Source: Candidatus Uhrbacteria bacterium
Lineage (GTDB): Bacteria; Patescibacteriota; Patescibacteriia; JACRJV01
Direction of reading: 5' to 3'
Assembly: GCA_016215325.1 (NCBI GenBank)
Contig: JACRJV010000007.1
Coordinates: forward strand, 3,728 to 67,727
Length of the DNA stretch: 64,000 nucleotides
The notes beneath the pieces were generated by a model. It did not search any database, had not been told where the DNA came from, and was given only the letters and a program-made list of their open reading frames with translations. How positions within the stretch are numbered: position 1 is the stretch's first letter; each line of letters begins with the position of its first letter. A program made the position numbers and the translations under genes. Shown piece by piece: positions 169 to 19,798 of the stretch.

Positions 169-2616
169 CTAGGGTGTTACGGGGGGTTCTGGCAGAGGAA
201 TTTTTTCTTTGAGCGTACTGGATCCCGTGGTTCCCCGTCCCCCTTCTGTTGCGAGCTTGGTCACTTCCTCGATTTTCTTCATGAGCTGGGGGTTATTGGC
301 ATTATTCTTGAGGATCTCGTTGAGCTCGCTCAACTCATCGTCATACCGCTTCTGATCTTCGTAGAGCTGGGCCAAATACCACCGCGCATTGGCGTAATCG
401 CTTTTGGCCGCGATCACCGCATTCCATACTTTTTCGGCAAGGTCTTTCTGATTATTCTTGTAATAGAGGGCGCCGAGTTGGATGTGCAGCGGCAAATCTC
501 CCGGTCGCGTTCGCGAAAGCCCTTCCACGCGCTTGATGGCTTCGGAGAGTTTCCCGCGCCGCTCTTCGATGATGGCCATCTGGAAGTGCGCGCTCGCAAA
601 GCCCTCGTCCAGCTGCAATGCTTTCTTCAGGAGATCCTCGGCATCAATCAACGCATCGCTTATTTTCTTCTGGTTAGCCTTCTCTCCAGCCGCCCCTTCA
701 CGGTCCGCGCGCGTTACATAGATTGCGGCCAAGTCGGTCACATGAGTCGGATTATTGGGTTCGAGTTCGCGCAATTTCTCTAAGGATTTGATCGCTTCGT
801 CTTCCGCGCCTTCGACAAATGGGCTTAATTGCTGATAGAGTCCCGCCAATGCTTGCCAATTTGCGGCGCTGACGAGGTTTAACCGCGTCGCCTCACGGCC
901 GGCAACAATGGTATCACGAGCGAGCAACCGCAACTGGGTCATCCGTTCTTCGGAGTCTTTTTTATTCTGGAGCGTGTCCTGGAATTTGGCCAATTGTAAC
1001 GCGCCAACGGTACGGAAATACACATCACTCCAGGGGTACAGATTAATTGCGCGAGCAATCGCCGCACGCCGATCATCCAACCCGGCCCTCTGGTCTCGCG
1101 CGGCCAAGAATGCCCAGTCTGCCGCAATGCGCCGGTACGAAGCCCAGGTTAACAGCGGCGCCGATAAAAAGACAATGCACGCAACACTTAACACGGTCAT
1201 CCGAAGCCGCGGGGAGTCGGCCAAATCCCAAGTCTTAGACGTTGCCGACGGCGCCAATGCCCATAAGAGTCCCGCTGTCAGTAACCCAAACACGAACTCC
1301 AAGAGTATGGTGGTGGGCAACAACGCCAACAGCGCCAGCCCCACGGTCCAGCCAGATCCCAGCGTTATGAGGATCAGCCATCGTCGCTCAGCCGCGTGCC
1401 GGAACACGGCCTTGAGCATCGGGACGATGATCGCAAATAACCAGAATAACAGCCCGAGTACCGTTGCAACGATCCCGAGTTGTGCGAGATGCGTCCACAG
1501 CGACGAGCGGCTCCGATCAAACAGCACGCCAAAACTTTGCCGCAGTGCTTCGGCAGTATGATATTTATTCACATCAATCGAGAACGTCGACGGCCCAGAC
1601 CCAAACACCGGTGAATCCTTGAGAGTCTCTTGCACCACTGTCCGGCTTTCGCTCCAGCTCATAATAAGGATCGGTGGCAATCTTTGGACAAGGCGCGCCG
1701 GTATCATCACAAAAAACGCGGCCACCACAATCACGGCAAACACTACCACCCACCGATGGGTTTTGGTGAGCTCCTGCGCCCGGCCGATGATAATCATGTA
1801 CAGCAGGAGTTCGCTCACGGCCACCACCACCCAAATGAGCTTGATCCCAATCACAGCAATCACGCCCATCGAGGTGACAATGGTCGCAAGCAGCAGTACG
1901 GATACAGCGCTATGCCCTGCCTTTTGGAGGTTTTTAAGCGACCCATGCTCTCCGAGGCCCAAAATAAAAAACTTAGCGCTGGCAAGGATCAACGTGATGG
2001 CCGAAAATACGGCGAGCCCCACAATGTCGCCGGCCGGGGTAAACAGCGCCGTGCGGGTTGCTTCCCAGGGCAGCACAAAGACGCCGGCAATACCCAACAG
2101 GAACAATACTGATGTCACCAACGATGACAAAAGCAGCGCGAACAACGCCCCCAACCATTGCTGTTCATTCAATTCCTGCAGCGCCACCAATCCAATCAAT
2201 GCCACGGCAATCATGGTGGCCAAACTCCCCCATTCCTGTCCGTAGTCGCCCAGGAGGCTCGTGAACGGATGGACGCTCATGACAGTGCTGGCAATCGCCG
2301 CCACAAAAAACGCTACGATCCAACCCCATCCGCGCACCGGTAGCCACTGGAACTTCTGCTCCAATACCATCCGCGCCAACCAGAGCGTTGTCACCAGCAC
2401 CACGCCGACCAGTAATAGGCTTTGTTTGGGTAATTCAAACGCGTCGCTCATGCGGCCGCCGAAGGTCAGCGGCGCAAAAAAAATAATCGCGTACAGGATC
2501 CAGCGATTGACAGCGGCGAGAATCGTGGCGGGTTGAACACGTGGCATACTGCGATAAAGAATCCAGATGTTGTATATCAGATATTCGAGACGTGCTCTCC
2601 AATATCCAATATCCAA
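169..2616 (-). CDS. O-antigen ligase (Wzy_C)-like polytopic membrane protein with C-terminal TPR repeats, 815 aa. The true start is possibly an internal Met.
   Basis: The N-terminal ~450 aa has more than 10 hydrophobic helices. It includes a loop of the form ...SLWTHLAQLGIVATVLGLLF, which resembles the Wzy_C 'aHNxyLqxlaElGiiG' region. The C-terminal ~350 aa is helical and shows TPR-like periodicity (e.g. ...ASAHFQMAIIEERRGKLSEAIKRVEGL..., ...ANARWYLAQLYEDQKRYDDELSELNEIL...). No search was run to confirm. Confidence 0.5.
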   Translation of the reverse strand: MDIGYWRARLEYLIYNIWILYRSMPRVQPATILAAVNRWILYAIIFFAPLTFGGRMSDAFELPKQSLLLVGVVLVTTLWLARMVLEQKFQWLPVRGWGWIVAFFVAAIASTVMSVHPFTSLLGDYGQEWGSLATMIAVALIGLVALQELNEQQWLGALFALLLSSLVTSVLFLLGIAGVFVLPWEATRTALFTPAGDIVGLAVFSAITLILASAKFFILGLGEHGSLKNLQKAGHSAVSVLLLATIVTSMGVIAVIGIKLIWVVVAVSELLLYMIIIGRAQELTKTHRWVVVFAVIVVAAFFVMIPARLVQRLPPILIMSWSESRTVVQETLKDSPVFGSGPSTFSIDVNKYHTAEALRQSFGVLFDRSRSSLWTHLAQLGIVATVLGLLFWLFAIIVPMLKAVFRHAAERRWLILITLGSGWTVGLALLALLPTTILLEFVFGLLTAGLLWALAPSATSKTWDLADSPRLRMTVLSVACIVFLSAPLLTWASYRRIAADWAFLAARDQRAGLDDRRAAIARAINLYPWSDVYFRTVGALQLAKFQDTLQNKKDSEERMTQLRLLARDTIVAGREATRLNLVSAANWQALAGLYQQLSPFVEGAEDEAIKSLEKLRELEPNNPTHVTDLAAIYVTRADREGAAGEKANQKKISDALIDAEDLLKKALQLDEGFASAHFQMAIIEERRGKLSEAIKRVEGLSRTRPGDLPLHIQLGALYYKNNQKDLAEKVWNAVIAAKSDYANARWYLAQLYEDQKRYDDELSELNEILKNNANNPQLMKKIEEVTKLATEGGRGTTGSSTLKEKIPLPEPPVTP

Positions 2617-2690: not shown

Positions 2691-5600
2691 TTACTCCTGC
2701 GCAACTGTCTCGGGTTGTGCCGGTGCTGGGGCAGACTCGGTCGCCGCGGCCTGTTCTACTGCCGCAGGCTCTGACTGGGCAGGTGCGGCTTCTGCGACAG
2801 GTTCGGGAGCGGGTGTCGGCTCTGGGGCTGGTGTTGGAGTAGGTTCAGAAGACGCTGTTGGCGTCTCTGTTATCGGGGGTTCCGGCAGCGCGGGCGTTTC
2901 GGTCACAACCGCTGGCTCTGGAGCGGGTTCGACCTCTGAAGCTTGAGAGGGGGGTTCCTCTATTTTTTTCTCAACCGGTGTTGTGGGGGGATCTTCCTCA
3001 ATTTCTTTGAGTGTAATGATCGGAGCAGGGGCCGACGCGCTCTGCTGCCGTACTTGCTGCTGCGATTGTTCCCGAATTCCCTGGATTTCCGCTCGCAAGA
3101 AGCTCAACTCTTCTTGGCTTGATCGCGTAGTCTCACCGGTTAAGCGATCGAGTCGCTGTTCAAACTGTTCCATGCGCTCGAATAATTTTTCGATCTGTGT
3201 TTGTTGGGCTTTAACGGCCGACAGTGTAAACGTGGCGAGTTTGTAGATGTCAACGCCTTTGCCGTCGATGCTCAATACTTCCAAGGGCGCTTCTTCGGCA
3301 ATGAGTCCCATCCGCAACGGCGCGGTGGCAGATTCTTCTTTATAGTGATACCGCGCGATATTCACATTGGCGAGCTTGGCCAAAATCGTCTTTTGATCCC
3401 CTTCGGTCAAATACTCAATGTCTTTCTTGGCTTCTTTTGTGGAAATATTCACAAAGCTCGTGGCGGCCACGTCGCCCATGACATGCAGCTTGTACTGGGG
3501 GTCTGTTGTGCCAATGCCGATATTGCCGTCATCGTCAAACGCCATTTGGCTTGATTCAATCCGATACTGCGGATTAAACCACACGACGATCTTGTTATCC
3601 GGTGATTGAGCGTTGTAGCTTTCGAGCGCCACGCCAACGGTCCATCCGCTGGTCTTGGCCTTCATGCCAACTCCGGCAATAGATGAAGTTGTAATCCGAT
3701 CACCGGCCGCAATGTCGCCGCCTTCGAGATTGACTTTTACCGGGATGCGCCCAGCTAGCACGATGGGTACTGGGTGTTCTTCTGTCGTGAACACCCCTTC
3801 ACCTAACACTTCTGAAAACGGATTAGTGGAAACGACACCCGTAATTGGAGCGTACACGGCTTGTGACTTTGCAACAGATGCTTTTGAACTTTGGCCGATC
3901 CGTTCTTGGACAAATTCTTGCGCCTCGCCGCTTATGGCCACAATATCGCCTGCTTCGAGCGTGCCGTCGCTCCCGTAGTACTCGGCCATGTCAGATCCGC
4001 CGGCGTTACAATCCCCAATGTTCACGAGCCCGGTTGCGGCATCGGCTCCGCTTTGGCAGACCCGCTGCGTATACGTTGTTGTATCATCAAGGTTGATTTG
4101 GAACGCAGTCAAACTCCCGGTCAAAATCGCGGTTCCTCCACTATCCTTAATGTTCACCGTGCCGTCGGAAGCATTATCAATCGTCTCGGAGTTTTGGAAT
4201 TTAATATCGTTAGTGATCCCAGCCCCACCGGTATTCGCAATCAATAACGCGTCGGTCACAACGGTAGAAGCGGGACCGGTTACGGCTGTATCAGCATTAT
4301 TCAAAACGAGCAATGCGCTCACGAAATTATCCGTAGTATTCGTTGTTGGCTGATTTTCAATCAACATGGCATATTCCACATTGTTGCTGACACTCGGCTG
4401 GTTGGTGAATTTGAAATAGTTTCCCACAATGGAGTTGGCTCCGCTTACTGCAGTGCTCGTTTGATTATTGTTGACGGTGAATACGCTCCCAGTCCACGAA
4501 TTACCGCTCTCTCCAGTGTCATTGCCAAAGGTCGCGGTCACAAGAGCAAGATTTAAATTACCGTTAGCGGCAAGCGACATTGGAGTGTTGTATCCATTAC
4601 CAAACTGATTATAGTCAAACCGAAGTTGGCTACCGCCCCCCTCTTGATTGGCGCTAAAGACCCTCCAATCCTGCGAATACGATGCGAGCCCTGGGCCTGG
4701 GTTCACCCACGAACTTCCATGAAACGTTAACGCGGGAGAATACTGCGCATCGTTTGTCGCCGTCGAAGCGGTGGTATTTTGCAACGTGATCCCCTGCACA
4801 GGTGTCCTATCCACCGAAGTGTCATTGGCGTTATCCGAAAACGCCACATTAACGCTTAAATTGGTATTATTGCCGATCTGGGTCACCATCCGTGTTTCAC
4901 CAGAAACCGTGATGCTGTCTCCAACCACCAACTCGGTAAGGAATGCAGTACCAACCCCAGTTACGTCCGTAGACGCTGTTGGGTCAATGCTTCCGGTTAA
5001 CACCGAAGTGGTAGAGCCGGTAGTAAAGACCCCTGAACCAACGACATCCAGTGCCGCCGTTGGCGTGGTGTCACCAATGCCCACATAGCCTCCGGCAAAA
5101 ATGGCTGTATAATTCGTGTCTGCCCCGGTGGGGGATGCCACATATAATCCGGTCTTCGTGGAGGTCCCGGTGGTGGTACTGGTTCCATCGGCAATATATA
5201 GGCCATAACTATTGATCGTTCCATTGGTTGTGAGGGTGGCGGTATTGGCAATATATTCGCCATACACATTCACCGTACTGCCGGTTGAGGAGGCAGTGGA
5301 TGATGGCGCAAGGTACGAGCCATACACGTTGGCTGTGCCGCCCGAGGATGCTCCAGACGTGGCTGGTTGAGAGCGAAGGCCATACACAGTACGCGTTCCT
5401 GTTGATATTGCGCCGGTGACACTCGTGGCAATATCCAAGGCCGCAATCGTATCGGCTGTGGTGGAGTTAGAAGTGACAGTCTGGTACAGACCATAGCCAT
5501 ACTTAGCGGCATTTCCGGTAAGCGCCAGAGAGCCGTAGTAGCCATAATCGGTGTTGGTATTGGCCGTTGAATCAGTCGCGGTGATGTTGAGGCCGTACCC

Positions 5601-8600
5601 CGTGACACCGCTGCCGGAGAAATCCGGCGCGCCATAGATGAGCGCCGCGCCAGAGCCGATGTCAGACGCCAAATTTACAACATGACTCGTAACACCGGTG
5701 GTGGTGGAGCCGGTAACACGAATGGCGGTGTCCCAGCCGCTGCCAATCTTCACCGCAGTTTCGGTGGCCGCGTTCGCGGTGATATCCCCAATATTCAACG
5801 CATTATATGTCCCCCCTTGAGGACCCGCAGGAACTAAATTAATTAAATTAATGGTGTCCCCGGCAGAACCATCAGAAGAAACGCTCGCGACCCGCAGTCC
5901 ATCCGCATTGATGGTGCCGTCCGTATACGCCGCGTTCCCTCCGCCGACCGAAATGTTCACCCCTCGCGAATTCACGGTGACACCGGCGACATCCGCTGAC
6001 ATTTGATTGGTAACATCGATGCCCGTCAATGTTTTAGTCCCTGAACCAGAGGCTGGTGTCCCAGGGATTGTTAATGACAACCCGGTAATCGCCGATGTGT
6101 TATCAAGAGTAAGATTTGAACTTAAATCCATTGCCATCCCCGTTATTGCTCCGCTTTGCGTGGTCGCAGAACCAAAGTCCGCGTTGATGAGCGAGCCAGT
6201 CGTCCACTCGGTTTCCAAGGCAAAATCGAGGAATGTTCCAGTGGTCGTGGGGCTAATGGTCAGCGCCCCGCTCATCCCCAGCGTCGTCACATCACTCACG
6301 GCCCCTGCGTTAATATCAATCCCATTAATGCTTTCATCCGTGGCTACCGTGAGTTGCCCAGAGGAGTTGATATAATATGAAGATGAGTGGAACTGTATGT
6401 CTCCTTTGGTGGAGTTAGAGGTGGAGATCAACAGAAGGTCATCGCCACTGCCAGAACCACCGACAAGATCTCCTTGGGTGCCATCAGCAAACAGAGCATA
6501 GTTGGTGGTGGCGCCAGAGGCGGAGAAGTAGCCACCGTAATTAGATGAGGTGGTTCCGGTGTTAGCAACGGTGGAATAGACTCCATACGCCGTGTGCGTG
6601 GCATTGCTGTTGGTACCAGAGCGAGTAAGTTTCAAAAGTGCGGTAGAGCCAGACCCACCGCCCACGGTAGAGGTTGATTCGATAAATACTCCGGTGCCCG
6701 TGGTCAGCCCGTCGGCAGAAATCTGAAGCGCGTCAGCCGTTGAAACAGAGTCAGCCGTAATCTGAGCCGCATCCGTGGTGTTGCCGGTGTAGGTTTGGAC
6801 GAAGGTGCCGGTGCCGGAGGCTAGGGCAAAATTCGCATTGGCATCAATAGTCGTACCGCCGAGCGTAACAGTGCTGTCAACGTTCAAAGTAGATGTGGTG
6901 GAAATAGCACCATCGGCAGTGATGGCTCCGATGCCGCTCATGTCCCCGGTGGTGTTGATGTCCCAGTCAGAGGAATCGATCGCAACAGTATCGCCGCTAT
7001 CGCCGAGATCAACTTGCCCATTGGCATCCAACGCTCCGGCAAGAGTGAGTCCCCCAGTGGAAGTAAAATCCGTACCAGCGTTTCCGATGTTTACGAGAAT
7101 GTTGGCACTAAGATCAATGCCGGTATCCCAACCAGAACCGATACTCAAAGCGGTTTCGGTGCCATTGCCAGCAGTGATATTGCCAATATTAATTCCATAC
7201 AATGTTCCCGCGCCCACTCCAGCAGCCGCGAGGTTGATAATATTTTGGGTCCCGGCGGTGGTGATCGTGCCATTGACAAGACGGATGCCGTTGGCCGTCA
7301 CAGTGTCGCCGGTATTCTGGGTAATGTTGGGCATGGTGATGTTGGCGCCTCGCCAGTTGATGATCGCGGCATTGGCTCCATCGGTAACAGACAGAGCGCC
7401 GGCAGCCGAGATATTGTAGCCGGTGTATGTGGTAGTGACGGCGGAGTCTGCGGCAGTCAAGGCATTCATCACAATGTCTGTGCCGGTGATGTCGAGATCT
7501 GCTGCTCCGGTTAAGTTCGTATCAAAATCAAATTTAAGGCCAGTGATATCCCCTCCAGATTGCGTGGTGACATTGGCAAAATCAGCATTAATAAGGGTGC
7601 CTTGGGTCCATTCAGTTTCGAGTTGATAATCCGTAAATGTGCCGGTGGTGGTTGGAGCGATGGTGAGCGCCCCGCTCATGCCCAACGTCGTCACATCACT
7701 CACGGCCCCAGAGCTCACATCGATGCCGTTGAGGGTTTCATCGGTCGCAAACGTCGCTTGTCCCGAAGAGTTGATAATGTAGCTGGACGAATGGAATTGA
7801 ATGTCGCCCTTGGTCGCATTGGAAGTGGAGACCAAGAGGAGATCATCGCCGGAACCTGTGCCGCCGACCAGATCGCCCTCGGTTCCGTTGGCGACGAGCG
7901 CATAATTCACGATCAATCCAGAGGCAGTCGAAGCCGCGAAGTACCCAGCAATGTTGGTACCGCTGGTGGCGTTGACATTAGTAACCGAGGAATAGATTCC
8001 ATAGGCTGTGTGAGCGCTATTGGCGTTAGTGCCAGAACGGGTCAGTGTGACGAGCGCGGTGTCATCTGATCCCGTACCTACTGTGGAAGTTGAAATAATA
8101 TTCAAAGCATTGCCTGTGGTTAAGCCACTGGCCGTGATCTGGAGCGCATCGGCAGTGGTCACAGAGCTCGCAGTAATCTGCGCCGCATCGGTGGTATCGC
8201 CAGTAAAAGTCTGCACAAACGTGCCAGTGCCAGAGGCAAGGGCAAAATTATTGTTCGCCGCTACAGTTGTGGCACCGGTCAAGGAGACGGGTCCGGTAAG
8301 GGTGATCGTTCCGCTGCTGCCGCCAATGCTAAACCGGCTTGAGCTGGTGTTTACATCGTAAATTTCAAACGCGTTGGCAATTGTGATCGATGAACCTGCG
8401 CGCCAATCGCTCGGGTAGCCGGTTTTAAATTCTATCGTCGCCGGATTTCCAATATCCGTCTTATCTAAGATAAGCATGTTATAGGAAGAGCTACGATCTC
8501 CACCCGAGTCTTTGATAACGAGGTTTGTGGTTGGCGTTGTCGTCCCAATACCAACGTATCCGGAACCTGGGCTTAATACCAGATCATCGCCAGAACTCGT

Positions 8601-11600
8601 AACAATTTCAACTGCGGTGTTGGTATCTTCGTCCAGATCAAATGTTAATGTATTCGTGCCATCGGAAAAAGAAAGCTCGGTGTCTGTAGAATTGACGATT
8701 GTCTCGCCATTTCCCAGAGTGAGCGTACCGTCCAATCGTGTGGTCCCCGCATCCACCCACAAGGCATAGGCATTGGTGATGGTGGCAGGCCCAGCGCCCG
8801 CGCCCGTAGGCGCATTGGCAATATAGAGTGATGCCGCATTGGTTACCGTAAGAGTAGAGGCAGCGGAGAGTGTCGATTGAGCAATATTCAGAAGATTAAA
8901 CCCCGTGGCAGTCGTGATATTTGTAGAGCCAGTGATGGTGGCGGTTGCCGCAGAAAGATCGATGCCGTTCCAAGTGGCGCTGGCGCCTGAGGCAATAGTT
9001 TCGTTACCAGAAATCGCAGGATTTGTGATGGTGGCAGTATTGATCGCAGGACTAGTTAATGTTTTGTTTGTAAGAGTATCAGTAGTCGCTCGACCGACAT
9101 AGGTGTCCGTTCCTTGGAAGGTGATTGTTGTGGAATCCGTACCAGCGAGAGTCAAAGAGTTACTCGCCGTCAGCGTCTTACCATCGGCGATCGTGAGTGT
9201 GCCAGTGGATGCTGTTACTGTAAGTCCGTTGATTGTCTTATTCGTCAGCGCCTCTGCACCCGCAAGAGTGGCGAGCGTACCGGTCGTTGGAAGAGTAACG
9301 TTTGTTGCTCCGGTTGTTGTGAGTGTAAGAGAGTTCGCCCCAGAGGTAATGAGTGCTCCGGCAGTGGTGAGGTTCCCAGCCAAGTTAATCGTGCGAGCCG
9401 CATCGTTGGTGGTGATTGTCAGTATTCGGCCAGCTGTAAGATTCTCAGTGTTGGCAAGAGTGAGATCAAACGCGCCGGTGCCGGTGGAACGAATGCCTAA
9501 GGACGTGAGTGCGTCAGCAGTGCCGCCGTTGATATCTGGACTGGTCAGCGTTTTGTTCGTCAATGTATCGGTCGTGGCACGGCCAACTAGCGTATCAGTT
9601 CCGGTGGGAATCGTGATGGTGCCGCTATTAGAGATGGAGGCGATCACTGGGGTTGTGAGGGTTTTGTTGGTGAGCGTATCGGTTGTCGCGCGGCCGACAT
9701 ACGTGTCTGTTCCCTGAAATGTGATGGTTGTCGCATCTGTTCCTGCCAATGTGAGTGAATTGCTCGCGGTTAAGGTCTTCCCATCCGCGATCGTCAACGT
9801 GGCCGAAGTGGTCGGCGCGGTAATGGCGACCTTATTAATGGATGTTGCAGAAGCAACGCCTAAAGTCGGAGTAACGAGGGTCGGAGACGTCGAAAAGACG
9901 AGATTCGTGCTCGTGGTTCCTGTTGTTCCGCCCGCAGAGGAAAGATAGTTCAACTGTGTTCCCGTCGACGTAACCGATGTTGCTCCAAGTGTAAACGGTG
10001 TGGGAATGGTGACCGTGCCGGTGAAGGTGGGGCTTTCTAAAAATGCAAATGTTTTCCGTGCTGCGCCGGTCGTGATGGTGCCGTAATACGCATCGGTCAA
10101 GAATTCCACGGCCCCGGCTTCGGCAGTGGTCATCAGTGACCCAGAGTTAAACTTGAGCGGCGCTGTGGAAGCGCTGGTGGTGCCAGCTTTGAGGTGAAGG
10201 ACAGCAGTGGGGGTTGTGACCCCGATGCCGACATTTCCATCAAAACGCACAGCCCCATCATCCACCCATAACGCATAGGCATTGGTGATGGTGGCTGGCC
10301 CAGCGCCTCCGCCCGTGGGGGCATTGGCAATATATGCTGTTGCGGCATTCGTCACAGTTAATGCTGAAGCTGCCGAGAGTGTTGGTTGGGCAATATTCAA
10401 CAGATTAAACCCAGCGGCTGTCGTGATGTTGGTGGAGCCGGTGATGGTGGCTGTGGCCGCAGAAAGATCGATCCCGTTCCAGGTGGCACTCGCACCAGAG
10501 GCGATCGTTTCGTTGCCAGAGATCGCGGGGTTGGTAATGGTAGCGGTATTAATCGCAGGACTGGTCAATGTCTTGTTCGTGAGCGTATCCGTGGTGGCTC
10601 GACCGACAAGCGTATCTGTTCCGGTGGGGATCGTGATAGTACCGGAGTTGGAAATGGAAGCGATCACGGGAGTTGTGAGTGTTTTGTTGGTGAGCGTATC
10701 CGTCGTCGCCCGGCCAACATACGTGTCTGTTCCTTGAAAGGTGATTGTTGTCGCATCTGTTCCTGCCAATGTGAGTGAATTACTCGCAGTCAACGTTTTC
10801 CCATCGGCGATCGTGAGGGTGGCCGATGTTGCCGGCGCGGTAATCGCCACCTTGTTGATTGAGGTTGCGGATGCAACGCCTAGTACGGGGGTAACAAGCG
10901 TCGGGGTTGTGGCAAATACCAGCGCTCCAGAACCGGTTTCATCGGTGAGTTGTCCTGAAATGCCCGAAGATGCGGTAGTAGCGGTCACGGCACTCGTGCC
11001 ATTGCCGATTAAGATGCCTGAGAGCGTCCCCGCTCCAGTACCTCCTTGAGCAACCGCTAATGCAGTGGTTAATCCCGAAATCGACGTGATGTCCGAATTT
11101 GCTCCCGATGCGGCGGCGCCTAAATTTGCTCGCGCATTCGCGGCGGTTGTTGCGCCAGTGCCGCCGTTAGCCACTGCAATCGTCGTCCCATTCCAGGTCC
11201 CGGCCGTGATCGTCCCAACCGTCGCAATGTCGGTACCCACCAGTTTTGAAGCCGCAATCGAGCCCGTGAGCATGCCATTCGTGACCGATCCGGTATCACC
11301 AGTGGTGACAATAGTACCACTGACATTGGGAATGCTCAGCGTTCGGGTTGCCCCCGCGCTTACACCGGAGATTTGGAATGCGAGTTGCTTGGTTGTGTCG
11401 CTATCGTCTTGGATAACGAAGTTTGTATCTTTCAACGTCGCTGCGTTCGTATTATCAATCGTCTTGTTGGTGAATGTTTCACTACCGGCAAGGGTCGCAA
11501 TAGTGCCGGTGGTCGGCAAGGTGAGGGTCGTCGCCCCCGTTGTTGCGAGCGTTAGGGCATTCGCTCCGGATGTCGTGAATGCCCCCGCAAGCGTGAGATT

Positions 11601-12377
11601 GCCATCGAGATTAATCGTGGTGCCCGCTCCTTGAATTGTTTTGTCCGCGCCCGTCACCGTCAATGTCCGCGATGTGGTGCCCCCGGCAACAGTGAACCCG
11701 TCCGCGGCCGAGGCAAGTGTCAATCCATTGACGGCGCCGCTGGTCACAGTGCCGGTGCCAGAACTTCCCACCGTGAGCGTGCCGGCCACGGTTGCATCAC
11801 CTTCGGCATCCACTTTGAATCGGCTCGTGCCATTCACCGCAATGCCAAAGAGCGTGTAGTTGGCGGTGACGCTCGCGGGGTTTATGTAGACAACACCTTG
11901 ACTCACGCCCGTTCCCGACGGGGTGCCAGTCAACGTAAAATTTCCGGAAGAGCTGGTCACGGGGACAAATGCAGAAAGGCCGCCAATGGCCGATGTTTCT
12001 AATCCATCGAGCCGATCGGTGTTGACGGCGTACCCCGATGCCCCAATCCGGCGTCGTGGCGAGAGCGTTTCGCCATTGACTTGGACCTCGAGATACAATG
12101 TGTCGTTATCGAACAACGTCACCGGGAATGCGTTTTGTGATCCGCCACCGGCAGATGTATCACCTAAGAGCACGCTAAACTCGCCACTGGCCACAGCCAC
12201 ACTCATGGTCGACGACGGACTCGTGCACCCATTCGCTCCCGTGCCTTTCGCAGACCATTGGCAGGTGCCGGACGTTGCGGCGTCGTAAATCACAAATGCC
12301 ATGTTGTAGTTGGCATCGCTTACCGCCGAACCGCTGGAAGTCTTGAGGACCCCCTGGTAACTCATGACATGGGGCAC
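2691..12377 (-). CDS. Giant repeat-rich, tail-fibre-like surface protein, 3228 aa as called from a GTG start. The C-terminus carries an intramolecular-chaperone (peptidase S74-like) domain plus a Pro/Glu/Thr/Ala-rich tail.
   Basis: This is a single uninterrupted 9.7-kb ORF. It is extremely rich in Gly, Thr, Ser, Ala and Asn. Modules of the form ...TDTLTNKTLTTPVIASISNSGTITIPTGTDTLVGRATTDTLTNKTLTSP... are reiterated. Some copies are identical at the DNA level, for example around 9.1-9.7 kb versus 10.4-10.8 kb. Two ~250-aa paralogous blocks begin ANNNFALASGTGTFVQTFTGDTTDAAQITA... and ANANFALASGTGTFVQTYTGNTTDAAQITA... Near the N-terminus there is a motif NGGTGATTAANARANLGAA like those seen in phage tail fibres. 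The C-terminal region reads ...DDDGNIGIGTTDPQYKLHVMGDVAATSFVNISTKEAKKDIEYLTEGDQKTILAKLANVNIARYHYKEE..., which matches the architecture of the 'chaperone of endosialidase' / peptidase S74 domain. A coiled coil and a PAPEPTPAPEP low-complexity tail follow. No signal peptide appears after the called start (see the mini-ORF at 12408..12488). Confidence 0.85.
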   Translation of the reverse strand: MPHVMSYQGVLKTSSGSAVSDANYNMAFVIYDAATSGTCQWSAKGTGANGCTSPSSTMSVAVASGEFSVLLGDTSAGGGSQNAFPVTLFDNDTLYLEVQVNGETLSPRRRIGASGYAVNTDRLDGLETSAIGGLSAFVPVTSSSGNFTLTGTPSGTGVSQGVVYINPASVTANYTLFGIAVNGTSRFKVDAEGDATVAGTLTVGSSGTGTVTSGAVNGLTLASAADGFTVAGGTTSRTLTVTGADKTIQGAGTTINLDGNLTLAGAFTTSGANALTLATTGATTLTLPTTGTIATLAGSETFTNKTIDNTNAATLKDTNFVIQDDSDTTKQLAFQISGVSAGATRTLSIPNVSGTIVTTGDTGSVTNGMLTGSIAASKLVGTDIATVGTITAGTWNGTTIAVANGGTGATTAANARANLGAAASGANSDITSISGLTTALAVAQGGTGAGTLSGILIGNGTSAVTATTASSGISGQLTDETGSGALVFATTPTLVTPVLGVASATSINKVAITAPATSATLTIADGKTLTASNSLTLAGTDATTITFQGTDTYVGRATTDTLTNKTLTTPVIASISNSGTITIPTGTDTLVGRATTDTLTNKTLTSPAINTATITNPAISGNETIASGASATWNGIDLSAATATITGSTNITTAAGFNLLNIAQPTLSAASALTVTNAATAYIANAPTGGGAGPATITNAYALWVDDGAVRFDGNVGIGVTTPTAVLHLKAGTTSASTAPLKFNSGSLMTTAEAGAVEFLTDAYYGTITTGAARKTFAFLESPTFTGTVTIPTPFTLGATSVTSTGTQLNYLSSAGGTTGTTSTNLVFSTSPTLVTPTLGVASATSINKVAITAPTTSATLTIADGKTLTASNSLTLAGTDATTITFQGTDTYVGRATTDTLTNKTLTTPVIASISNSGTITIPTGTDTLVGRATTDTLTNKTLTSPDINGGTADALTSLGIRSTGTGAFDLTLANTENLTAGRILTITTNDAARTINLAGNLTTAGALITSGANSLTLTTTGATNVTLPTTGTLATLAGAEALTNKTINGLTVTASTGTLTIADGKTLTASNSLTLAGTDSTTITFQGTDTYVGRATTDTLTNKTLTSPAINTATITNPAISGNETIASGASATWNGIDLSAATATITGSTNITTATGFNLLNIAQSTLSAASTLTVTNAASLYIANAPTGAGAGPATITNAYALWVDAGTTRLDGTLTLGNGETIVNSTDTELSFSDGTNTLTFDLDEDTNTAVEIVTSSGDDLVLSPGSGYVGIGTTTPTTNLVIKDSGGDRSSSYNMLILDKTDIGNPATIEFKTGYPSDWRAGSSITIANAFEIYDVNTSSSRFSIGGSSGTITLTGPVSLTGATTVAANNNFALASGTGTFVQTFTGDTTDAAQITASSVTTADALQITASGLTTGNALNIISTSTVGTGSDDTALVTLTRSGTNANSAHTAYGIYSSVTNVNATSGTNIAGYFAASTASGLIVNYALVANGTEGDLVGGTGSGDDLLLVSTSNATKGDIQFHSSSYIINSSGQATFATDETLNGIDVSSGAVSDVTTLGMSGALTIAPTTTGTFTDYQLETEWTQGTLINADFANVTTQSGGDITGLKFDFDTNLTGAADLDITGTDIVMNALTAADSAVTTTYTGYNISAAGALSVTDGANAAIINWRGANITMPNITQNTGDTVTANGIRLVNGTITTAGTQNIINLAAAGVGAGTLYGINIGNITAGNGTETALSIGSGWDTGIDLSANILVNIGNAGTDFTSTGGLTLAGALDANGQVDLGDSGDTVAIDSSDWDINTTGDMSGIGAITADGAISTTSTLNVDSTVTLGGTTIDANANFALASGTGTFVQTYTGNTTDAAQITADSVSTADALQISADGLTTGTGVFIESTSTVGGGSGSTALLKLTRSGTNSNATHTAYGVYSTVANTGTTSSNYGGYFSASGATTNYALFADGTQGDLVGGSGSGDDLLLISTSNSTKGDIQFHSSSYYINSSGQLTVATDESINGIDINAGAVSDVTTLGMSGALTISPTTTGTFLDFALETEWTTGSLINADFGSATTQSGAITGMAMDLSSNLTLDNTSAITGLSLTIPGTPASGSGTKTLTGIDVTNQMSADVAGVTVNSRGVNISVGGGNAAYTDGTINADGLRVASVSSDGSAGDTINLINLVPAGPQGGTYNALNIGDITANAATETAVKIGSGWDTAIRVTGSTTTGVTSHVVNLASDIGSGAALIYGAPDFSGSGVTGYGLNITATDSTANTNTDYGYYGSLALTGNAAKYGYGLYQTVTSNSTTADTIAALDIATSVTGAISTGTRTVYGLRSQPATSGASSGGTANVYGSYLAPSSTASSTGSTVNVYGEYIANTATLTTNGTINSYGLYIADGTSTTTGTSTKTGLYVASPTGADTNYTAIFAGGYVGIGDTTPTAALDVVGSGVFTTGSTTSVLTGSIDPTASTDVTGVGTAFLTELVVGDSITVSGETRMVTQIGNNTNLSVNVAFSDNANDTSVDRTPVQGITLQNTTASTATNDAQYSPALTFHGSSWVNPGPGLASYSQDWRVFSANQEGGGSQLRFDYNQFGNGYNTPMSLAANGNLNLALVTATFGNDTGESGNSWTGSVFTVNNNQTSTAVSGANSIVGNYFKFTNQPSVSNNVEYAMLIENQPTTNTTDNFVSALLVLNNADTAVTGPASTVVTDALLIANTGGAGITNDIKFQNSETIDNASDGTVNIKDSGGTAILTGSLTAFQINLDDTTTYTQRVCQSGADAATGLVNIGDCNAGGSDMAEYYGSDGTLEAGDIVAISGEAQEFVQERIGQSSKASVAKSQAVYAPITGVVSTNPFSEVLGEGVFTTEEHPVPIVLAGRIPVKVNLEGGDIAAGDRITTSSIAGVGMKAKTSGWTVGVALESYNAQSPDNKIVVWFNPQYRIESSQMAFDDDGNIGIGTTDPQYKLHVMGDVAATSFVNISTKEAKKDIEYLTEGDQKTILAKLANVNIARYHYKEESATAPLRMGLIAEEAPLEVLSIDGKGVDIYKLATFTLSAVKAQQTQIEKLFERMEQFEQRLDRLTGETTRSSQEELSFLRAEIQGIREQSQQQVRQQSASAPAPIITLKEIEEDPPTTPVEKKIEEPPSQASEVEPAPEPAVVTETPALPEPPITETPTASSEPTPTPAPEPTPAPEPVAEAAPAQSEPAAVEQAAATESAPAPAQPETVAQE

Positions 12378-12407
12378 GCCAACGGCCGCTTGAGTGCGAT
12401 AATTATA

Positions 12408-12488
12408 CTAAAACGCGCCAGCAACCGCTGGGATAACGAGAACCAGGAATAGGAATTTTACCAATTGTGGATGTTTGACCGACGACAT
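12408..12488 (-). other. Orphan signal-peptide mini-ORF (26 aa, MSSVKHPQLVKFLFLVLVIPAVAGAF). It is in the same frame as the giant gene and separated from it by one TAG.
   Basis: ATG at 12488. The N-region has Lys/His, followed by a hydrophobic core and an AGA/AxA-like site. The stop is TAG at 12408..12410. Ten sense codons (YNYRTQAAVG) then lead directly into the GTG at 12377 of the giant ORF. The distance of 111 nt equals 37 codons, so the two are in the same frame. Confidence 0.5.
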
Positions 12489-12541
12489 ATGCTATTGCGT
12501 TTTTGTTTCGGTTTTCTTCGTCTCTTTGAACGGTGCTGGAT

Positions 12542-13150
12542 TTACTGCGCCACTTCCCGCAGTCCACTGATGAACAATTCTGTGTTGACCGTAATCGCAT
12601 AAACAGCCAGATCAATCTGGTCACGAGCTGAACGCCATTCTTCTTGCAAATCTTGCCGCGTTGACGCCACATCCTCGACGGACGATTCCGCCACAGGCAA
12701 TGCTTCGCTCACGGCAACCAACTCTTCAACGATATTCTGCTTGACCGCAGCCGCCGCCTGCCCAGGCTGCCAACTGGTCTTTGCCCAGGCGCGCATCACT
12801 TCAACTTGTTTGCTCGTCTTCTCAAATGTTTGTCGCACCCACTGTTGCACTGTTTGCCAGAACCCTATAACGCCAGACTTGATGCTGCTCCCTGCTTGTC
12901 CGATCGCAACACCGACCGCTTGGACCCTCACAACAATGTGCTGTTGCGTTCGCAACAAGGTATGTTGGATTCTTTGAATGCGCGATGGGCGCTCCGGCTC
13001 ACTGACCTCCTGCGCAGCAGAAGTCTCCGATGGTTGTCCTGTTTTACGTTCAGCGGATTTCTCATTTTCGGATTGATCGGTCTTCTCCGGTGGTATCACG
13101 GGCTTGATTTCTTGCTCAACACGAATACTGCCCGATGATTCAGTTCTCAC
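12542..13150 (-). CDS. Hypothetical protein (202 aa) with a charged N-terminus and no signal peptide
   Basis: The ORF shows a 4-nt ATGA overlap with the upstream gene, which suggests translational coupling. I recognised no motif. Confidence 0.45.
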   Translation of the reverse strand: MRTESSGSIRVEQEIKPVIPPEKTDQSENEKSAERKTGQPSETSAAQEVSEPERPSRIQRIQHTLLRTQQHIVVRVQAVGVAIGQAGSSIKSGVIGFWQTVQQWVRQTFEKTSKQVEVMRAWAKTSWQPGQAAAAVKQNIVEELVAVSEALPVAESSVEDVASTRQDLQEEWRSARDQIDLAVYAITVNTELFISGLREVAQ

Positions 13151-13749
13151 CGCAAGAGGTTTCGGCTCGATCGCAATTTCCGCCCGGGGATGCGCGCCCC
13201 AAAAAGTTGTTTCACGGGTTTTGTGACCGCTTCAATGGCACGTTCAATCACCCCAGAGGTCTCGGGCTGTTGTTGCGCATCCGGGGGAACCGAAGTCCCG
13301 GATGATGCGGGTATCGTTGTAGGCGCGGCTTGTTCTTGCTGCGGTAGGAGGGGCGCGTCCGTTGGTTCTTGTTGCGGTGCGCCGCCGGACGGCGGTGGAG
13401 TCGTCGTGGTTGGTTGTTGTTGTGGGGCGACTCCCGTATCAGCCGGGGGCGCTACTGCCTGCGTCCCTCGCGCTGTGCGCGTCGTGGTGCTGCCCGAACC
13501 TGTTGATGTTGCCAGTGGAGCAGCGGTCTTGAAATTCGTTGAACTCCCCCCCTGTGCTGGGGCAACGCCCCCTCGGGAACCCGATGTTGTGCTGCCAGAA
13601 GCAGAAGACCCGGATGGGCCAAACGAAAAAGAGTCGATGAGAATAAAGCTTGTGGAAGTAGACGTGTCTGCGCGTACGTCAGAAGCTGCTATCCACAAGC
13701 CTGATACCCAAACGACTCCAAGGATAATTATGAAGAATGGGGCCTTCAT
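13147..13749 (-). CDS. Secreted low-complexity Ser/Thr/Pro/Gln-rich protein (200 aa)
   Basis: The N-terminus MKAPFFIIILGVVWVSGLWIAASDVRA looks like a signal peptide. The rest is S/T/G/P/Q-rich low complexity. It is the first gene downstream of a strong promoter. Confidence 0.5.
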   Translation of the reverse strand: MKAPFFIIILGVVWVSGLWIAASDVRADTSTSTSFILIDSFSFGPSGSSASGSTTSGSRGGVAPAQGGSSTNFKTAAPLATSTGSGSTTTRTARGTQAVAPPADTGVAPQQQPTTTTPPPSGGAPQQEPTDAPLLPQQEQAAPTTIPASSGTSVPPDAQQQPETSGVIERAIEAVTKPVKQLFGARIPGRKLRSSRNLLR

Positions 13750-13822: not shown

Positions 13823-13851
13823 ATTATAGCATTTTTTAGGTAAACTTTCAA
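13823..13851 (-). promoter_or_regulatory. Sigma70-type promoter driving the secreted-protein / giant-protein gene string
   Basis: The minus strand reads TTGAAA-17 nt-TATAAT, i.e. a perfect -10 with 17-bp spacing, about 70 nt upstream of the ATG at 13749. Confidence 0.55.
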
Positions 13852-15293: not shown

Positions 15294-15368
15294 TGGTGCG
15301 CGTGCCTGGGATCGAACCAGGGACCTTCTCATTATCAGTGAGACGCTCCACCACTGAGCTACACGCGC
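15294..15368 (-). tRNA. tRNA-Ile (anticodon GAT), with CCA encoded
   Basis: The sequence is GCGCGTG-TA-GCTC-AGTGGTG-GAGC-G-TCTCA-CTGATAA-TGAGA-AGGTC-CCTGG-TTCGATC-CCAGG-CACGCGC-A-CCA. The arms form a clean cloverleaf. Confidence 0.9.
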
Positions 15369-16051: not shown

Positions 16052-16504
16052 AAAGATACGATGATCAATGAACCATTGTCATTATATATTAGCATAACCT
16101 TTTCTAGAGTACAACTTTTTTACCGATTTACTAAACTTCGTATGGTGAAGAGTTGTCGATACAAAAAGCCGCCCTTGTGAGGCGGCTTTCGCTTGCCCCG
16201 CAGCGATTGCTCAGGGCGAAGTTGACTCAAGAAACGTGATAGCAATGACGTCACCCGATCATTTGATCGGGTCATTCGTTGGTGGAGTACTGCCGCCCTC
16301 AATGCGCGCTGAAAGAGTACAGCAGTATTCCACCAACAAATGTCGACTTGGACTTTCGTCCAAATTACTCCCTAGAAAGGAGGTGATCCATCCACAGCTT
16401 CCGCTACGGATGCCTTGTTACGACTTCGTCCCTGTCACCAATCCTACCTTCTGACGGTTGTCCGCCATTCGGGTATTATCGGCTCCCTTGACGTGACGGG
16501 CGGT

Positions 16505-17239
16505 ATTACGATCACAACAATCTTATGATTGTTGTGTCACTGATCACCACTGGGCAAACGGCTTTCCCGTACCCTAGCGGTTCCCAAATATCGTTATTGT
16601 TTTCTTCCCGTTCCTCCGCGCCATCTCGCGCAACGCCAGAATTTTTGAATATCCGGTGTCGCTCAGATGTTCTTTCTTCGCGATGATTTCCACCACGCGT
16701 CGAAAGATGTTGAAGGATTGCTGTTTTTTCGACTGAAGAGGGTGTTGTGCCTTCTCCGTCAACAAAACCCACAACATAGTGTGGCGGTAACGGTCGGAAA
16801 TGATAATTTGGTTTCACTCCTTCCCCAGAAAAACTTCTGAGTACTATGAGATCTGCTGACTTCTTGTACTTCATAAGAATGCTTGTTTCCAAACACTCCG
16901 CCATCACCTCGTGATTAATTCATCACGATGTAGTATACCACAATTTGATGATGGAAGGTACAAGATCTCCCTGGGTCACGAACAAGAATAATTGTCTCTA
17001 TCGGGATCCTAATCACATACAGCATTTTGTGTTCGAATAATTTCCCCCTGTACGCGCGGGGTCATCCAAACTGTATGCCACCATTGATTCACGCTAAAGA
17101 CTGCGTCCGAACTCTCGTCAGAGCCCTCGCGGGCACTGGCGTGTTCTTTGCTTCAAGTCTTTCGAACGAGACTTGGTCGGATTTCCTGCCTGCCGACAGG
17201 CAGGTCACCAACATTCGTTGTCCGCTACCAGGCGGTCCG
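16505..17239 (-). mobile_element. Intron/IVS inside the 16S rRNA gene, inserted between the GUACAC and ACCGCCCGUC segments near E. coli position ~1397
   Basis: The boundaries are unambiguous by alignment to the universal 16S sequence. The intron begins GGACCGCCUGG and ends ...CGUAAU, so it shows neither the group I terminal G nor the group II GUGYG. Its class cannot be determined by eye. Confidence 0.8.
16512..16907 (-). pseudogene. Degenerate LAGLIDADG homing-endonuclease ORF inside the 16S intron, probably frameshifted
   Basis: The 131-aa ORF contains ...HYVVGFVDGEG, a LAGLIDADG motif, but then turns low-complexity. An overlapping ORF in a second frame (16574..16777) carries the endonuclease-like continuation ...SFNIFRRVVEIIAKKEHLSDTGYSKILALRE... 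Confidence 0.5.
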
Positions 17240-17550
17240 TGTACAAAACCCGAGAACGTATTCACCGCGGCGAGGCTGATCCGCGATTACTAGCGATTCC
17301 TGCTTCATGAGGGCGAGTTGCAGCCCTCAATCTGAACTGGGGGGTGATTTGATGGGATTAGCTCCAGCTTGCGCTTTGGCGGCCCATTGTAGCACCCCAT
17401 TGTAGCACGTGTGTCGCCCAGGACGTAAGAGCCATGCTGATTTGACGTCATCCCCACCTTCCTCCCCCTTGAGGGGGGCAGTCTCGCCAGACACTTGTAA
17501 CTGGCAATAGGGGTTGCGCTCGTTTCCAGACTTAACTGTACACCTTACGG

Positions 17551-17583
<33 letters not shown>

Positions 17584-17695
17584 TGCACCCTCGAAGGTCA
17601 CACGTTTCCGTGCGCTTGCAGCATCATGTCAAGCCCTGGTAAGGTTCCTCGCTTATTGTCGAATTGAACCACATGCTCCACCGCTTGTGCGGGTT

Positions 17696-17744
<49 letters not shown>

Positions 17745-19037: not shown

Positions 19038-19316
19038 TTACCGATACAATTGACTATGCGTTCCGAGAAATAAAAATACGAATGCATCGTCGCTTAATAC
19101 TTTGTAGATCGCTCTCCAATCTCCAGTGACGTCGATACTACGATATCCCAAATACATTCCTTGGAGCGCGTGATTACTCAGACGTGAATCAAACGGGTCG
19201 CGTTGGAACGAACCAAGGCGCTCATACAACGCTGCTTGAATCTTTGTTGGGGCTGTTTGAAGCTGCTTCTTAAATCGAGTATGGAAGTGAATCGTCATAA
19301 CTACAGCCGGAATCAC
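19038..19316 (-). CDS. relE: Type II toxin of the RelE/ParE (YafQ-like) family
   Basis: The sequence ...ALQGMYLGYRSIDVTGDWRAIYKV... matches the family signature. There is a 4-nt overlap with the upstream antitoxin gene. Confidence 0.75.
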   Translation of the reverse strand: MIPAVVMTIHFHTRFKKQLQTAPTKIQAALYERLGSFQRDPFDSRLSNHALQGMYLGYRSIDVTGDWRAIYKVLSDDAFVFLFLGTHSQLYR

Positions 19317-19594: not shown

Positions 19595-19625
19595 ATAATA
19601 AGTGATAGTGAATACCCATAACTAA

Positions 19626-19746: not shown

Positions 19747-19798
19747 CTGCGCGAGTCCGGGGCAATGCGCGCTGTGCGCCATCGCCCCGGGGTCACAG

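Follow-up and report, generated by a model that had tools for sequence, protein, structure and literature searches.

A single in-frame TAG codon in the signal peptide of a giant tail-fibre-like gene, probably a recent and unprogrammed lesion

The gene for a giant tail-fibre-like protein is interrupted by a single in-frame TAG at a position where the syntenic metagenome ortholog L025 has TGG. We favour, with a probability of about 0.55, the explanation that a surface-protein operon carries a loss-of-function allele of recent and unprogrammed origin, caused by a TGG to TAG change in the signal peptide of the giant gene. Either an ordinary knockout mutation or an error in base calling accounts for the TAG, which is not a signal for programmed recoding. 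The features of the locus are compiled in Table 1, and all coordinates refer to the window, i.e. the whole stretch of 64,000 nucleotides that was analysed.

Table 1. Features of the giant-gene locus in window coordinates.
Feature	Position	Strand	Remark
TPR-repeat gene, downstream, 815 aa, intact	169..2616	-	Pfam TPR matches
Giant ORF	2691..12377	-	3228 aa as called; 3265 aa from ATG 12488 with TAG decoded
Predicted C-terminal intramolecular-chaperone domain (Pfam Peptidase_S74, 'chaperone of endosialidase')	3288..3437	-	PF13884
ATG, internal Met of the conserved VMSYQG motif, possible re-initiation codon	12363..12365	-	Internal Met in L025, L027 and L028
GTG, mechanical opener of the 3228-aa ORF	12375..12377	-	ATC (Ile) in L025
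YNYRTQA, seven codons, probable signal-peptide cleavage region	12387..12407	-	Conserved with L025 FNYQTQA
In-frame TAG, codon 27	12408..12410	-	Orthologous codon TGG (Trp) in L025, codon-by-codon alignment
26-codon mini-ORF, MSSVKHPQLVKFLFLVLVIPAVAGAF	12411..12488	-	Basic N-region and hydrophobic core of signal peptide
Native ATG start of the giant gene	12486..12488	-	Aligns with ATG of the intact ortholog L025
Upstream gene, same operon, split into 13749..13147 (200 aa) and 13150..12542 (202 aa)	12542..13749	-	One 414-aa secreted protein in L025
T5G4 run, best-fitting site of 1-nt deletion	13196..13205	-	One additional G gives KQLFGG, as in L025 (KQLFGG)
Promoter-like site (TTGAAA, 17 nt, TATAAT with TG)	13823..13851	-	11/12 consensus matches, consensus match only

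Homology across the TAG codon

On the minus strand, ATG 12488..12486 opens a run of 26 sense codons (12488..12411) that ends at TAG 12410..12408. Ten further sense codons (YNYRTQAAVG), GTG 12377 and ATG 12365 follow in one frame with the giant ORF, which extends over ~9.7 kb to TAA 2693..2691 and has no in-frame stop besides this TAG. The alignment with L025, which is 86% identical over the first 170 residues, starts at the same ATG and is gapless on both sides of the TAG position, where the two sequences differ by one G-to-A transition (12409, coding strand). From this ATG the ortholog has a single uninterrupted ORF that runs for 2197 codons to the edge of the locus without reaching a stop. 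The mini-ORF shares 14 of its 26 residues with the L025 equivalent MSLLQKPQFVKSLLLLLVLPAVLGAL without gaps, and the replacements at the other signal-peptide positions are mostly hydrophobic-for-hydrophobic. The ten codons behind the TAG (12407 onward) are likewise gapless with seven identities and conserved as protein, though they lie outside any start-codon ORF in the window.

The same architecture is found throughout the family. All of the 13 further relatives whose DNA was inspected (listed as L001, L002, L009, L016, L021 and L026-L032) have a continuous ORF with a hydrophobic N-terminus before the conserved x-[YF]-Q-G motif, and all motif-bearing database homologs exhibit a contiguous N-terminal hydrophobic segment with a small-x-small site 6-9 residues before YQG. 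The first-pass annotation had proposed that a signal peptide is encoded in frame upstream of the giant ORF and parted from it by a single TAG, which the reading frame and the gapless homology with L025 confirm. Judged from these alignments, the mini-ORF is not a chance feature. Its short length (26 codons) alone could suggest that intergenic DNA without any relation to the giant gene happens to read as a hydrophobic peptide, but this idea is refuted by the shared ATG, the gapless match to the L025 N-terminus and the family-wide architecture.

L025 is the only close ortholog, and the ancestral state is accordingly deduced from one sequence together with the family architecture. No record was retrieved by exact-sequence look-ups of the 200-aa neighbour or of the giant protein read from either candidate start, and a protein search with the 178-aa read-through N-terminus gave no match at E <= 1e-5. 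The best match of the N-terminus in the genome collection was 40% identical.

Signal peptide and start codons

The N-terminal part shows the hallmarks of a Sec-type signal peptide, i.e. a positively charged N-region (K5, H6 and K11 in MSSVKHPQLVK) and the hydrophobic core FLFLVLVIPAVAGAF in the usual range of ~10-20 residues. The maximum 9-residue Kyte-Doolittle mean of the conceptual read-through N-terminus is 3.1, reached in this core. The called N-terminus (VPHVMSYQGVLK...) is devoid of a hydrophobic segment, and its maximum of 1.6 agrees with the earlier observation that the called protein has no signal peptide of its own. As encoded, small residues at -3/-1 that are contiguous with the mature protein are missing, because the core and the T-Q-A↓A cleavage site fall on different ORFs that are joined only by conceptual read-through.

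Signal peptidase I would probably cleave at TQA↓A (12387/12386), seven codons past the TAG. This site was deduced from the family alignment A1, in which every member has a small-x-small site at this column, 6-9 residues before the [YF]-Q-G motif. This location places the TAG inside the signal peptide, most likely at the boundary of hydrophobic core and cleavage region. The AxA-like site before the TAG (AGA↓F) that was suggested in the first-pass annotation is therefore probably not real. Read-through and cleavage would likely result in the mature N-terminus AVGVPHVMSYQGVLK.

The candidate starts were ranked by the A+T richness of the upstream 25 nt, because most genes of the window lack Shine-Dalgarno motifs. 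The region upstream of ATG 12488 has 64% A+T, close to the window mean of 63% (23 genes), whereas the values for GTG 12377 (40%) and ATG 12365 (28%) are below those of all 23 other starts. Given its GC-rich upstream context and the ATC codon in L025, GTG 12377 is, on comparative grounds, not the native or ancestral start, and the giant protein as called from this codon without a signal peptide is an ORF-calling artefact. Annotation should begin at ATG 12488, yielding either a pseudogene with an internal stop or, if TGG proves true, an intact secreted protein. As a side aspect, Shine-Dalgarno motifs are missing from most genes of the window, yet the 16S rRNA retains CCUCC.

Bacterial ribosomes can re-initiate at distances such as 31 and 43 nt past a stop codon, which is exactly where GTG 12377 and ATG 12365 stand relative to the TAG. 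Together with the intact giant ORF, this could point to a functional split, with the 26-aa hydrophobic peptide as one genuine product and a giant protein that lacks the signal as the other. The latter would be re-initiated at one of these codons and act in the cytoplasm or be exported independently of Sec. We regard such a split as very unlikely. All relatives use an N-terminal signal peptide, GTG 12377 is not conserved, both starts have an atypical GC-rich context and the ten codons ahead of the GTG are conserved as protein; moreover, the split would cut the signal peptide before its cleavage site.

TAG is a regular stop codon

In the window, TAG is a normal stop. It terminates 16 of the 41 long ORFs. 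Among these 16 are rpiB, nrdR and the gene for the class II ribonucleotide reductase, with products whose Pfam matches run essentially to the C-terminus just before the TAG; in RpiB, the profile is covered from 1 to 138 of 138 and ends 4 residues ahead of it. More than 25 conserved genes in the other ~50 kb have near full-length Pfam coverage and no internal stop. Genome-wide reassignment of TAG, already considered unlikely at first pass, was rejected on the number of TAG terminators and the intact conserved genes. The giant gene itself contains one TAG in 3265 codons, and its 18 Trp codons are TGG. A second same-frame ORF pair split by TAG (47594) turned out to be two genes, with the ATG of RNase HII directly after the stop.

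Amber suppression, pyrrolysine incorporation, TAG-recoded phages and alternative genetic codes likewise involve long ORFs with an in-frame TAG whose decoding makes biological sense. The current case differs from these stop-codon recoding systems by its solitary TAG, the 16 of 41 ORFs that end with TAG, the TGG in L025 and the absence of a CUA-anticodon tRNA among the four tRNAs of the window (Ile-GAT, Ala-GGC, Ala-CGC and Arg-CCT). A search of the viral collection revealed no relatives, and thus nothing ties the locus to a TAG-recoded phage. The stop is not conserved in the ortholog, as would be expected for programmed read-through, and folding of 12520..12330 provided no sign of a stimulatory mRNA structure (-48.9 versus -46.7 +/- 4.0 kcal/mol for shuffled sequences, z = -0.55). 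Amber read-through or a suppressor tRNA, the second explanation offered at first pass, consequently finds no backing in TAG usage, tRNA content or RNA folding.

At the boundary between hydrophobic core and cleavage region, signal peptides accept most substitutions. Based on this tolerance and the intact giant ORF, one could assume that the TAG is real and tolerated or even selected, the expression being leaky or conditional. Low-level near-cognate read-through, or a suppressor tRNA encoded outside the window, would then supply a little full-length pre-protein with a functional signal peptide, or the population would contain a TAG/TGG on/off polymorphism. According to Belinky et al. (2021, PMC7918605), in-frame stops under purifying selection are widespread among bacterial genes and have been suggested to reduce expression, which also speaks for this idea. 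Nevertheless, we consider it unlikely. The stop is absent from the sole ortholog, TAG is an efficient and commonly used stop in this genome, neither a CUA tRNA in the window nor a stimulatory RNA structure was found, a repeat tract or invertible element for frequent switching is missing, and decay explains the frameshift in the neighbouring gene better than regulation does. It is quite unlikely, too, that the TAG is maintained as a translational attenuator or for bet-hedging, with termination of most ribosomes behind the hydrophobic leader peptide and rare near-cognate read-through dosing an extremely costly 3265-aa surface fibre, or that TAG and TGG alleles coexist. Coexisting alleles would leave a part of the population without a structure that is recognised by phages or hosts, and an attenuator would represent a functional in-frame stop (Belinky et al. 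2021, PMC7918605) inside the signal peptide of an episymbiotic CPR bacterium.

The TAG and the next two codons form TAGTATAAT, which contains a perfect -10 hexamer. An internal promoter was dismissed and the hexamer treated as a chance occurrence; the best -35 hexamer at 16-18 nt spacing had 1/6 matches by eye, and the promoter scan made no call there.

Absence of a phase-variable switch

The phase variation of opa genes in Neisseria, which is mediated by pentamer repeats within the coding region of the signal peptide, resembles the current case in that an on/off lesion falls within the part of a surface-protein gene that codes for the leader peptide. In contrast to opa, the TAG is not associated with a repeat tract, homopolymer or invertible segment, and a TGG/TAG change would revert at the basal mutation rate only. 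No tandem repeats were detected between 12200 and 12700 and no relevant direct or inverted repeats between 11900 and 13200. A phase-variable contingency locus, named at first pass as an example of the third explanation (a population-level polymorphism), was hence rejected, as neither a simple-sequence repeat nor an invertible segment is present at the TAG.

A second lesion in the operon

The gene upstream of the giant gene carries a lesion as well. A tblastn search with the 414-aa protein of L025 gives matches in two frames, and a one-base insertion restores a 402-aa ORF that is collinear with the ortholog. The exact site of the deletion is deduced, because any insertion between ~13147 and 13233 restores the frame; the best-fitting T5G4 run is located ~800 bp upstream of the TAG. 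Programmed -1 frameshifting at this run was discarded since the run does not conform to the slippery pattern X XXY YYZ. The promoter-like site ahead of the upstream gene is the probable promoter of the operon.

Loss of function or assembly artefact

According to the favoured loss-of-function explanation, the giant gene would natively be translated from ATG 12488 with a Sec-type signal peptide of ~34 residues (MSSVKHPQLVK, FLFLVLVIPAVAGAF-W-Y, NYRTQA↓A). Behind the signal peptide would come an N-terminal beta-sandwich domain, tail-fibre-like repeats encoded over kilobases and, at the C-terminus, an intramolecular chaperone. The Trp codon that closes the hydrophobic core would have mutated from TGG to TAG. 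Ribosomes starting at ATG 12488 should thus terminate after 26 codons and release a short hydrophobic peptide instead of the giant protein, of which at most a trace might arise by near-cognate read-through; alternatively, a signal-less cytoplasmic form could be made by re-initiation at GTG 12377 or ATG 12365. The 1-nt deletion in the upstream gene would be a second young lesion of the operon.

The remaining 3238 codons of the giant ORF contain no other stop, although a stop would result from 2.6% of all substitutions. With ~252 stops expected per unit of neutral divergence, i.e. one after ~0.4% divergence, this integrity is indicative of a recent mutation. As in a young pseudogene, there is a disabling lesion relative to an intact ortholog (TGG to TAG) and a further one in a linked gene, namely the frameshifted upstream gene, with none elsewhere in the giant ORF. 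The more than 25 intact conserved genes and the second lesion within the operon suggest decay of the operon rather than a generally error-ridden assembly. Of the initial explanations, the first (a nonsense mutation of recent date or an error of sequencing) is the one that agrees with the TGG in L025, the non-conserved stop, the intact downstream ORF and the second lesion upstream.

Premature stops in genes for bacterial surface proteins and the in-frame stops in otherwise conserved prokaryotic genes described by Belinky et al. (2021, PMC7918605) likewise involve single nonsense substitutions relative to intact orthologs with flanks that are still coding-like, and share with the giant gene the alternative of a young pseudogene or a low-expression allele. 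The authors stress stops that are conserved across species, whereas TAG 12408 is not shared with L025. It also differs from these cases by its position inside the signal peptide, so that export would be removed in addition to the shortening of the product.

A consensus or base-calling artefact is a possible explanation to which we give less credence. In that case the giant gene of the organism would carry TGG and encode a normal signal peptide within a continuous ORF of 3265 codons, and the upstream gene would have G5. Both defects could stem from errors in sequencing or polishing, or from a mixed-strain consensus at a variable surface-protein locus. The TGG in L025 is compatible with this explanation, and two defects within 800 bp might reflect a locally poor assembly. 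The T5G4 homopolymer run is a classic context for indel errors, and the giant ORF is fully intact past the TAG, as is also expected of a functional gene with an erroneous or leaky TAG; both observations count against loss of function. On the other hand, a G-to-A substitution outside a homopolymer is atypical of systematic errors, and the TAG lies outside the internal repeats of the giant gene (70-83% identical at the DNA level), which begin more than 1.5 kb away. The other ~50 kb harbor no broken conserved gene, which argues for a low overall error rate.

Architecture and significance of the giant protein

The giant protein is rich in Thr, Ala, Gly and Ser, and its composition and domain matches suggest a tail-fibre-like surface protein of a Patescibacteria-type bacterium. 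It matches the PHROG tail-fibre family phrog_18983 (E = 4e-17), and the predicted domain near its C-terminus matches PF13884 with 28.6 bits (gathering cut-off 22; E = 1.8e-6). A C-terminal chaperone domain and matches to phage tail-fibre families are features that it shares with Peptidase_S74 tail-fibre-like proteins. The N-terminal domain is homologous to proteins of Patescibacteria (CPR), whose secreted representatives have an N-terminal x-[YF]-Q-G-x-L beta-sandwich domain in common with the giant protein (31-39% identity across alignment A2). Most of the database relatives found comprise 350-700 aa compared with ~3260 aa here, and none of them is functionally characterised. The AlphaFold2 model of the N-terminal domain is a beta-sandwich (pLDDT 69); a structure search of the PDB with this model gave no significant match (best E = 0.12), and the PDB sequence search with the domain found nothing meaningful.

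If the lesion is real, a very large tail-fibre-like surface structure and the partner gene upstream of it were both recently turned off in this population, with a bearing on host attachment or phage escape of a Patescibacteria-type cell. The TAG lesion reveals no new mechanism, and its main value is practical. Wider interest would arise only if the stop were conserved or read through, and no finding of the current study suggests either. The intact TPR-repeat gene downstream possibly shares a transcription unit with the giant gene.

Gene model at the 5' end of the giant gene

The features of the locus are listed in the table. On the minus strand, the upstream ATG opens a run of 26 sense codons (MSSVKHPQLVKFLFLVLVIPAVAGAF) that ends at the TAG; 10 further sense codons (YNYRTQAAVG) lead to the GTG start of the called gene and then to another ATG. 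All three starts share the frame of the giant ORF, which encodes 3228 aa from the GTG. The first-pass annotation had described this arrangement exactly to the base, and it was also right that the called protein has no signal peptide of its own: its N-terminus (VPHVMSYQGVLK...) lacks a hydrophobic segment, and its maximal 9-residue Kyte-Doolittle mean is 1.6, compared with 3.1 for the conceptual translation across the TAG.

Coordinates of the features discussed in the text (window positions)
Feature	Position	Strand	Remarks
Upstream ATG	12488..12486	-	64% A+T in the 25 nt upstream, typical of 23 genes
In-frame TAG	12410..12408	-	TGG in the ortholog
TAGTATAAT	12402-12410	-	TAG and next two codons; perfect -10 hexamer
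Predicted cleavage site TQA↓A	12395..12387 / 12386	-	past the TAG
Called GTG start	12377	-	40% A+T in the 25 nt upstream, below all 23 genes; ATC (Ile) in the ortholog
Internal ATG	12365	-	28% A+T in the 25 nt upstream, below all 23 genes
TAA of giant ORF	2693..2691	-
Internal direct repeats	8728-10848	-	three families
Promoter-like site	13851..13823		strong; ahead of upstream gene
Upstream gene, first frame	13749..13147	-	200 aa
Upstream gene, second frame	13150..12542	-	202 aa; GTGA overlap with first frame
T5G4 run	13205..13196		probable site of frame change
Second TAG-split ORF pair	47590-47596	-	569 aa and 221 aa
tRNA-Ile	15294-15368
16S rRNA gene	~16376-18708	-
16S insertion	~17238		near E. 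coli position 1400
Group II intron D1-D4 match (Rfam)	16817-16900		within 16S insertion
16S 3' part	~16500-16376		contains AAGTCGTAACAAGGCA and anti-Shine-Dalgarno CACCTCCTT
Region upstream of 16S	18709-20700		~2 kb

Comparison with the ortholog

A metagenome contig, OBOI01000442.1 (locus L025), shows synteny with the window (~70-82% DNA identity) and carries the sole ortholog of the giant protein (86% identity over the first 170 residues). There the gene is one ORF whose ATG aligns exactly to the upstream ATG of the window and which is still unclosed after 2197 codons, where the fetched locus ends. The protein alignment runs without gaps from residue 1 to past residue 230 (window, MSSVKHPQLVKFLFLVLVIPAVAGAF and, after the TAG, YNYRTQAAVGVPHVMSYQG; L025, MSLLQKPQFVKSLLLLLVLPAVLGALWFNYQTQAATGIPRVMSYQG), and codon 27 is TGG in L025 versus TAG in the window. 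The 10 codons that separate the TAG from the GTG lie outside any start-codon ORF in the window, yet seven of them are identical to L025. The internal ATG encodes the Met of a conserved VMSYQG motif that is also present in L027 and L028. On this alignment, the mini-ORF is the severed 5' end of the giant gene, and a chance origin is excluded. Past residue 41, synonymous divergence has reached saturation (pS 0.78) at a pN of only 0.13, which is indicative of strong and long-standing purifying selection on the giant protein.

An uninterrupted N-terminal hydrophobic segment is found in all 13 other relatives seen at the DNA level (among them L001, L002, L009, L016, L021 and L026-L032) and in every database homolog bearing the x-[YF]-Q-G-x-L motif (including P0003, P0013, P0017, P0020, P0021, P0024, P0025, P0030, P0034, P0037, P0060, P0079, P0102, P0110 and P0112). 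In most of them the motif begins ~26-50 residues past the start codon; the exception is L031, where segment and motif lie ~390 residues into the open frame. Each sequence of the N-terminal family alignment has a small-x-small site (ASA, AEA, THA, TQA and similar) 6-9 residues ahead of the motif. Judged by this column, the giant protein would be cleaved at TQA↓A, giving AVGVPHVMSYQGVLK as the putative mature N-terminus, and the AGA↓F site ahead of the TAG that had been proposed is probably not used. The TAG therefore truncates the signal peptide where its hydrophobic core ends and does not fall between a complete signal peptide and the mature protein.

Recoding, read-through and phase variation

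TAG is a genuine stop in the window, as had been assumed: it terminates 16 of the 41 longest non-overlapping ORFs, including NrdR, ribonucleotide reductase and RpiB, whose Pfam profile is covered from 1 to 138 of 138 and ends four residues ahead of the TAG. A second same-frame ORF pair split by one TAG represents two separate genes, the ATG of RNase HII directly following the stop of the preceding gene. Amber read-through or a suppressor tRNA had been proposed for the giant gene, and read-through has a precedent (Belinky et al. 2021, PMC7918605), but the locus itself offers nothing specific for it. None of the four tRNAs in the window has a CUA anticodon, the mRNA fold around the TAG is no better than that of shuffled sequence (z = -0.55), the TAG is not kept in L025, and TGG occurs 18 times in the giant ORF, which has no other TAG. 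Programmed recoding is thus without support. The suggested phase-variable switch fares no better, since tandem repeats, homopolymer tracts and inverted repeats are all absent from the TAG site, which removes the usual mechanisms. Taken together, leaky read-through, a suppressor tRNA or an on/off polymorphism is improbable.

Native start, operon and the upstream gene

The mean A+T content in the 25 nt ahead of starts is 63% for 23 genes of the window. The upstream ATG conforms to this pattern, and the GTG and the internal ATG fall below every one of these genes; a functional split with re-initiation at a downstream start is very unlikely. The A+T content of the window as a whole is 49%. A recognisable Shine-Dalgarno motif is missing from most of the ~25 starts checked (e.g. 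13749, 24611, 32480, 43952), though the 16S rRNA keeps CACCUCCUU (CCUCC). The promoter-like site precedes the upstream gene, and the giant gene starts 53 nt past the stop of this neighbor, which suggests that both form one operon. The sequence TAGTATAAT is, relative to L025, the product of the G-to-A change plus TTT-to-TAT (Phe-to-Tyr); the match is probably due to chance, because neither a matching -35 hexamer nor a TG extension was found for it.

In L025, the gene directly upstream is a continuous ORF (414 aa from the ATG) whose product combines a conserved C-terminal domain with a signal peptide and a linker rich in Ser, Thr and Pro. Its counterpart in the window is distributed over two frames, and the frame changes directly past a conserved KQLFG, at the T5G4 run. 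Insertion of a single base there recreates KQLFGG and a 402-aa ORF collinear with L025. This frameshift is also young, because the ancestral frame past it meets no stop before the normal one.

Age and nature of the lesion

A stop would result from 2.6% of all possible single-base substitutions in the giant ORF, so that ~252 nonsense changes are expected per unit of neutral divergence, indels left out. The absence of any further stop from 3238 codons limits unselected drift to at most a few tenths of a percent divergence. The TAG is either very recent, or not real, or not fully disabling. With 800 bp between them and a shared operon, the two defects are indicative of operon decay or of a locally poor consensus, and not of an assembly with errors throughout; more than 25 conserved genes over the other ~50 kb are unbroken and match their profiles over nearly the full length. 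That the TAG and the missing upstream G are both consensus or sequencing artefacts is plausible but less likely. The most likely explanation is a real and recent TGG-to-TAG nonsense mutation producing a null or near-null allele (probability about 0.55). Ribosomes starting at the upstream ATG would then halt after 26 codons, and the giant protein would be absent or made in traces by near-cognate read-through; re-initiation might alternatively leave a signal-less cytoplasmic form. The partner gene upstream would be frameshifted as well. A nonsense codon in a gene, real or artefactual, is already known and common, and the useful outcome is the corrected model of the giant gene.

The giant protein and its genomic setting

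Composition (rich in Thr, Ala, Gly and Ser) and domains suggest that the giant protein is exported by the Sec route and forms a fibre-like protein on the surface of a CPR bacterium. Its N-terminal domain is modeled as a beta-sandwich (pLDDT 69) without a significant match among solved structures; relatives of this domain stem almost all from Patescibacteria (CPR) metagenome bins, the best match in the genome collection has 40% identity, and exact-sequence protein look-ups gave no match. The direct repeats (182-300 nt) share a DNA identity of only 70-83%, and their protein segments are nearly identical in the translation read by eye (e.g. GVASATSINKVAITAP...TDTLTNKTLT, residues ~500-605 and 840-945), thus suggesting that selection keeps the protein sequence. 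Near the C-terminus lies a Peptidase_S74 intramolecular-chaperone domain (PF13884, 28.6 bits versus a cut-off of 22), a region that also matches phage tail-fibre families. It is followed in the translation by a charged stretch rich in Gln and Glu, apparently coiled-coil-like, and by a tail rich in proline.

Besides four tRNAs and a bacterial 16S rRNA gene, the window encodes common housekeeping functions (TrmD, RpiB, Rpe, trigger factor, NusA, a proton-pumping pyrophosphatase, ProRS, a ProB/ProA-like/ProC cluster, class II ribonucleotide reductase with NrdR, RNase HII and bactofilin); a 23S rRNA gene is absent from it. Neither a long ORF nor an Rfam match (E <= 0.01) is present in the region upstream of the 16S rRNA gene. 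The 16S rRNA gene itself appears to be interrupted by an insertion of ~700-750 nt, after which its 3' part resumes, and past the gene a 230-aa HTH-domain ORF is followed by tRNA-Ile.
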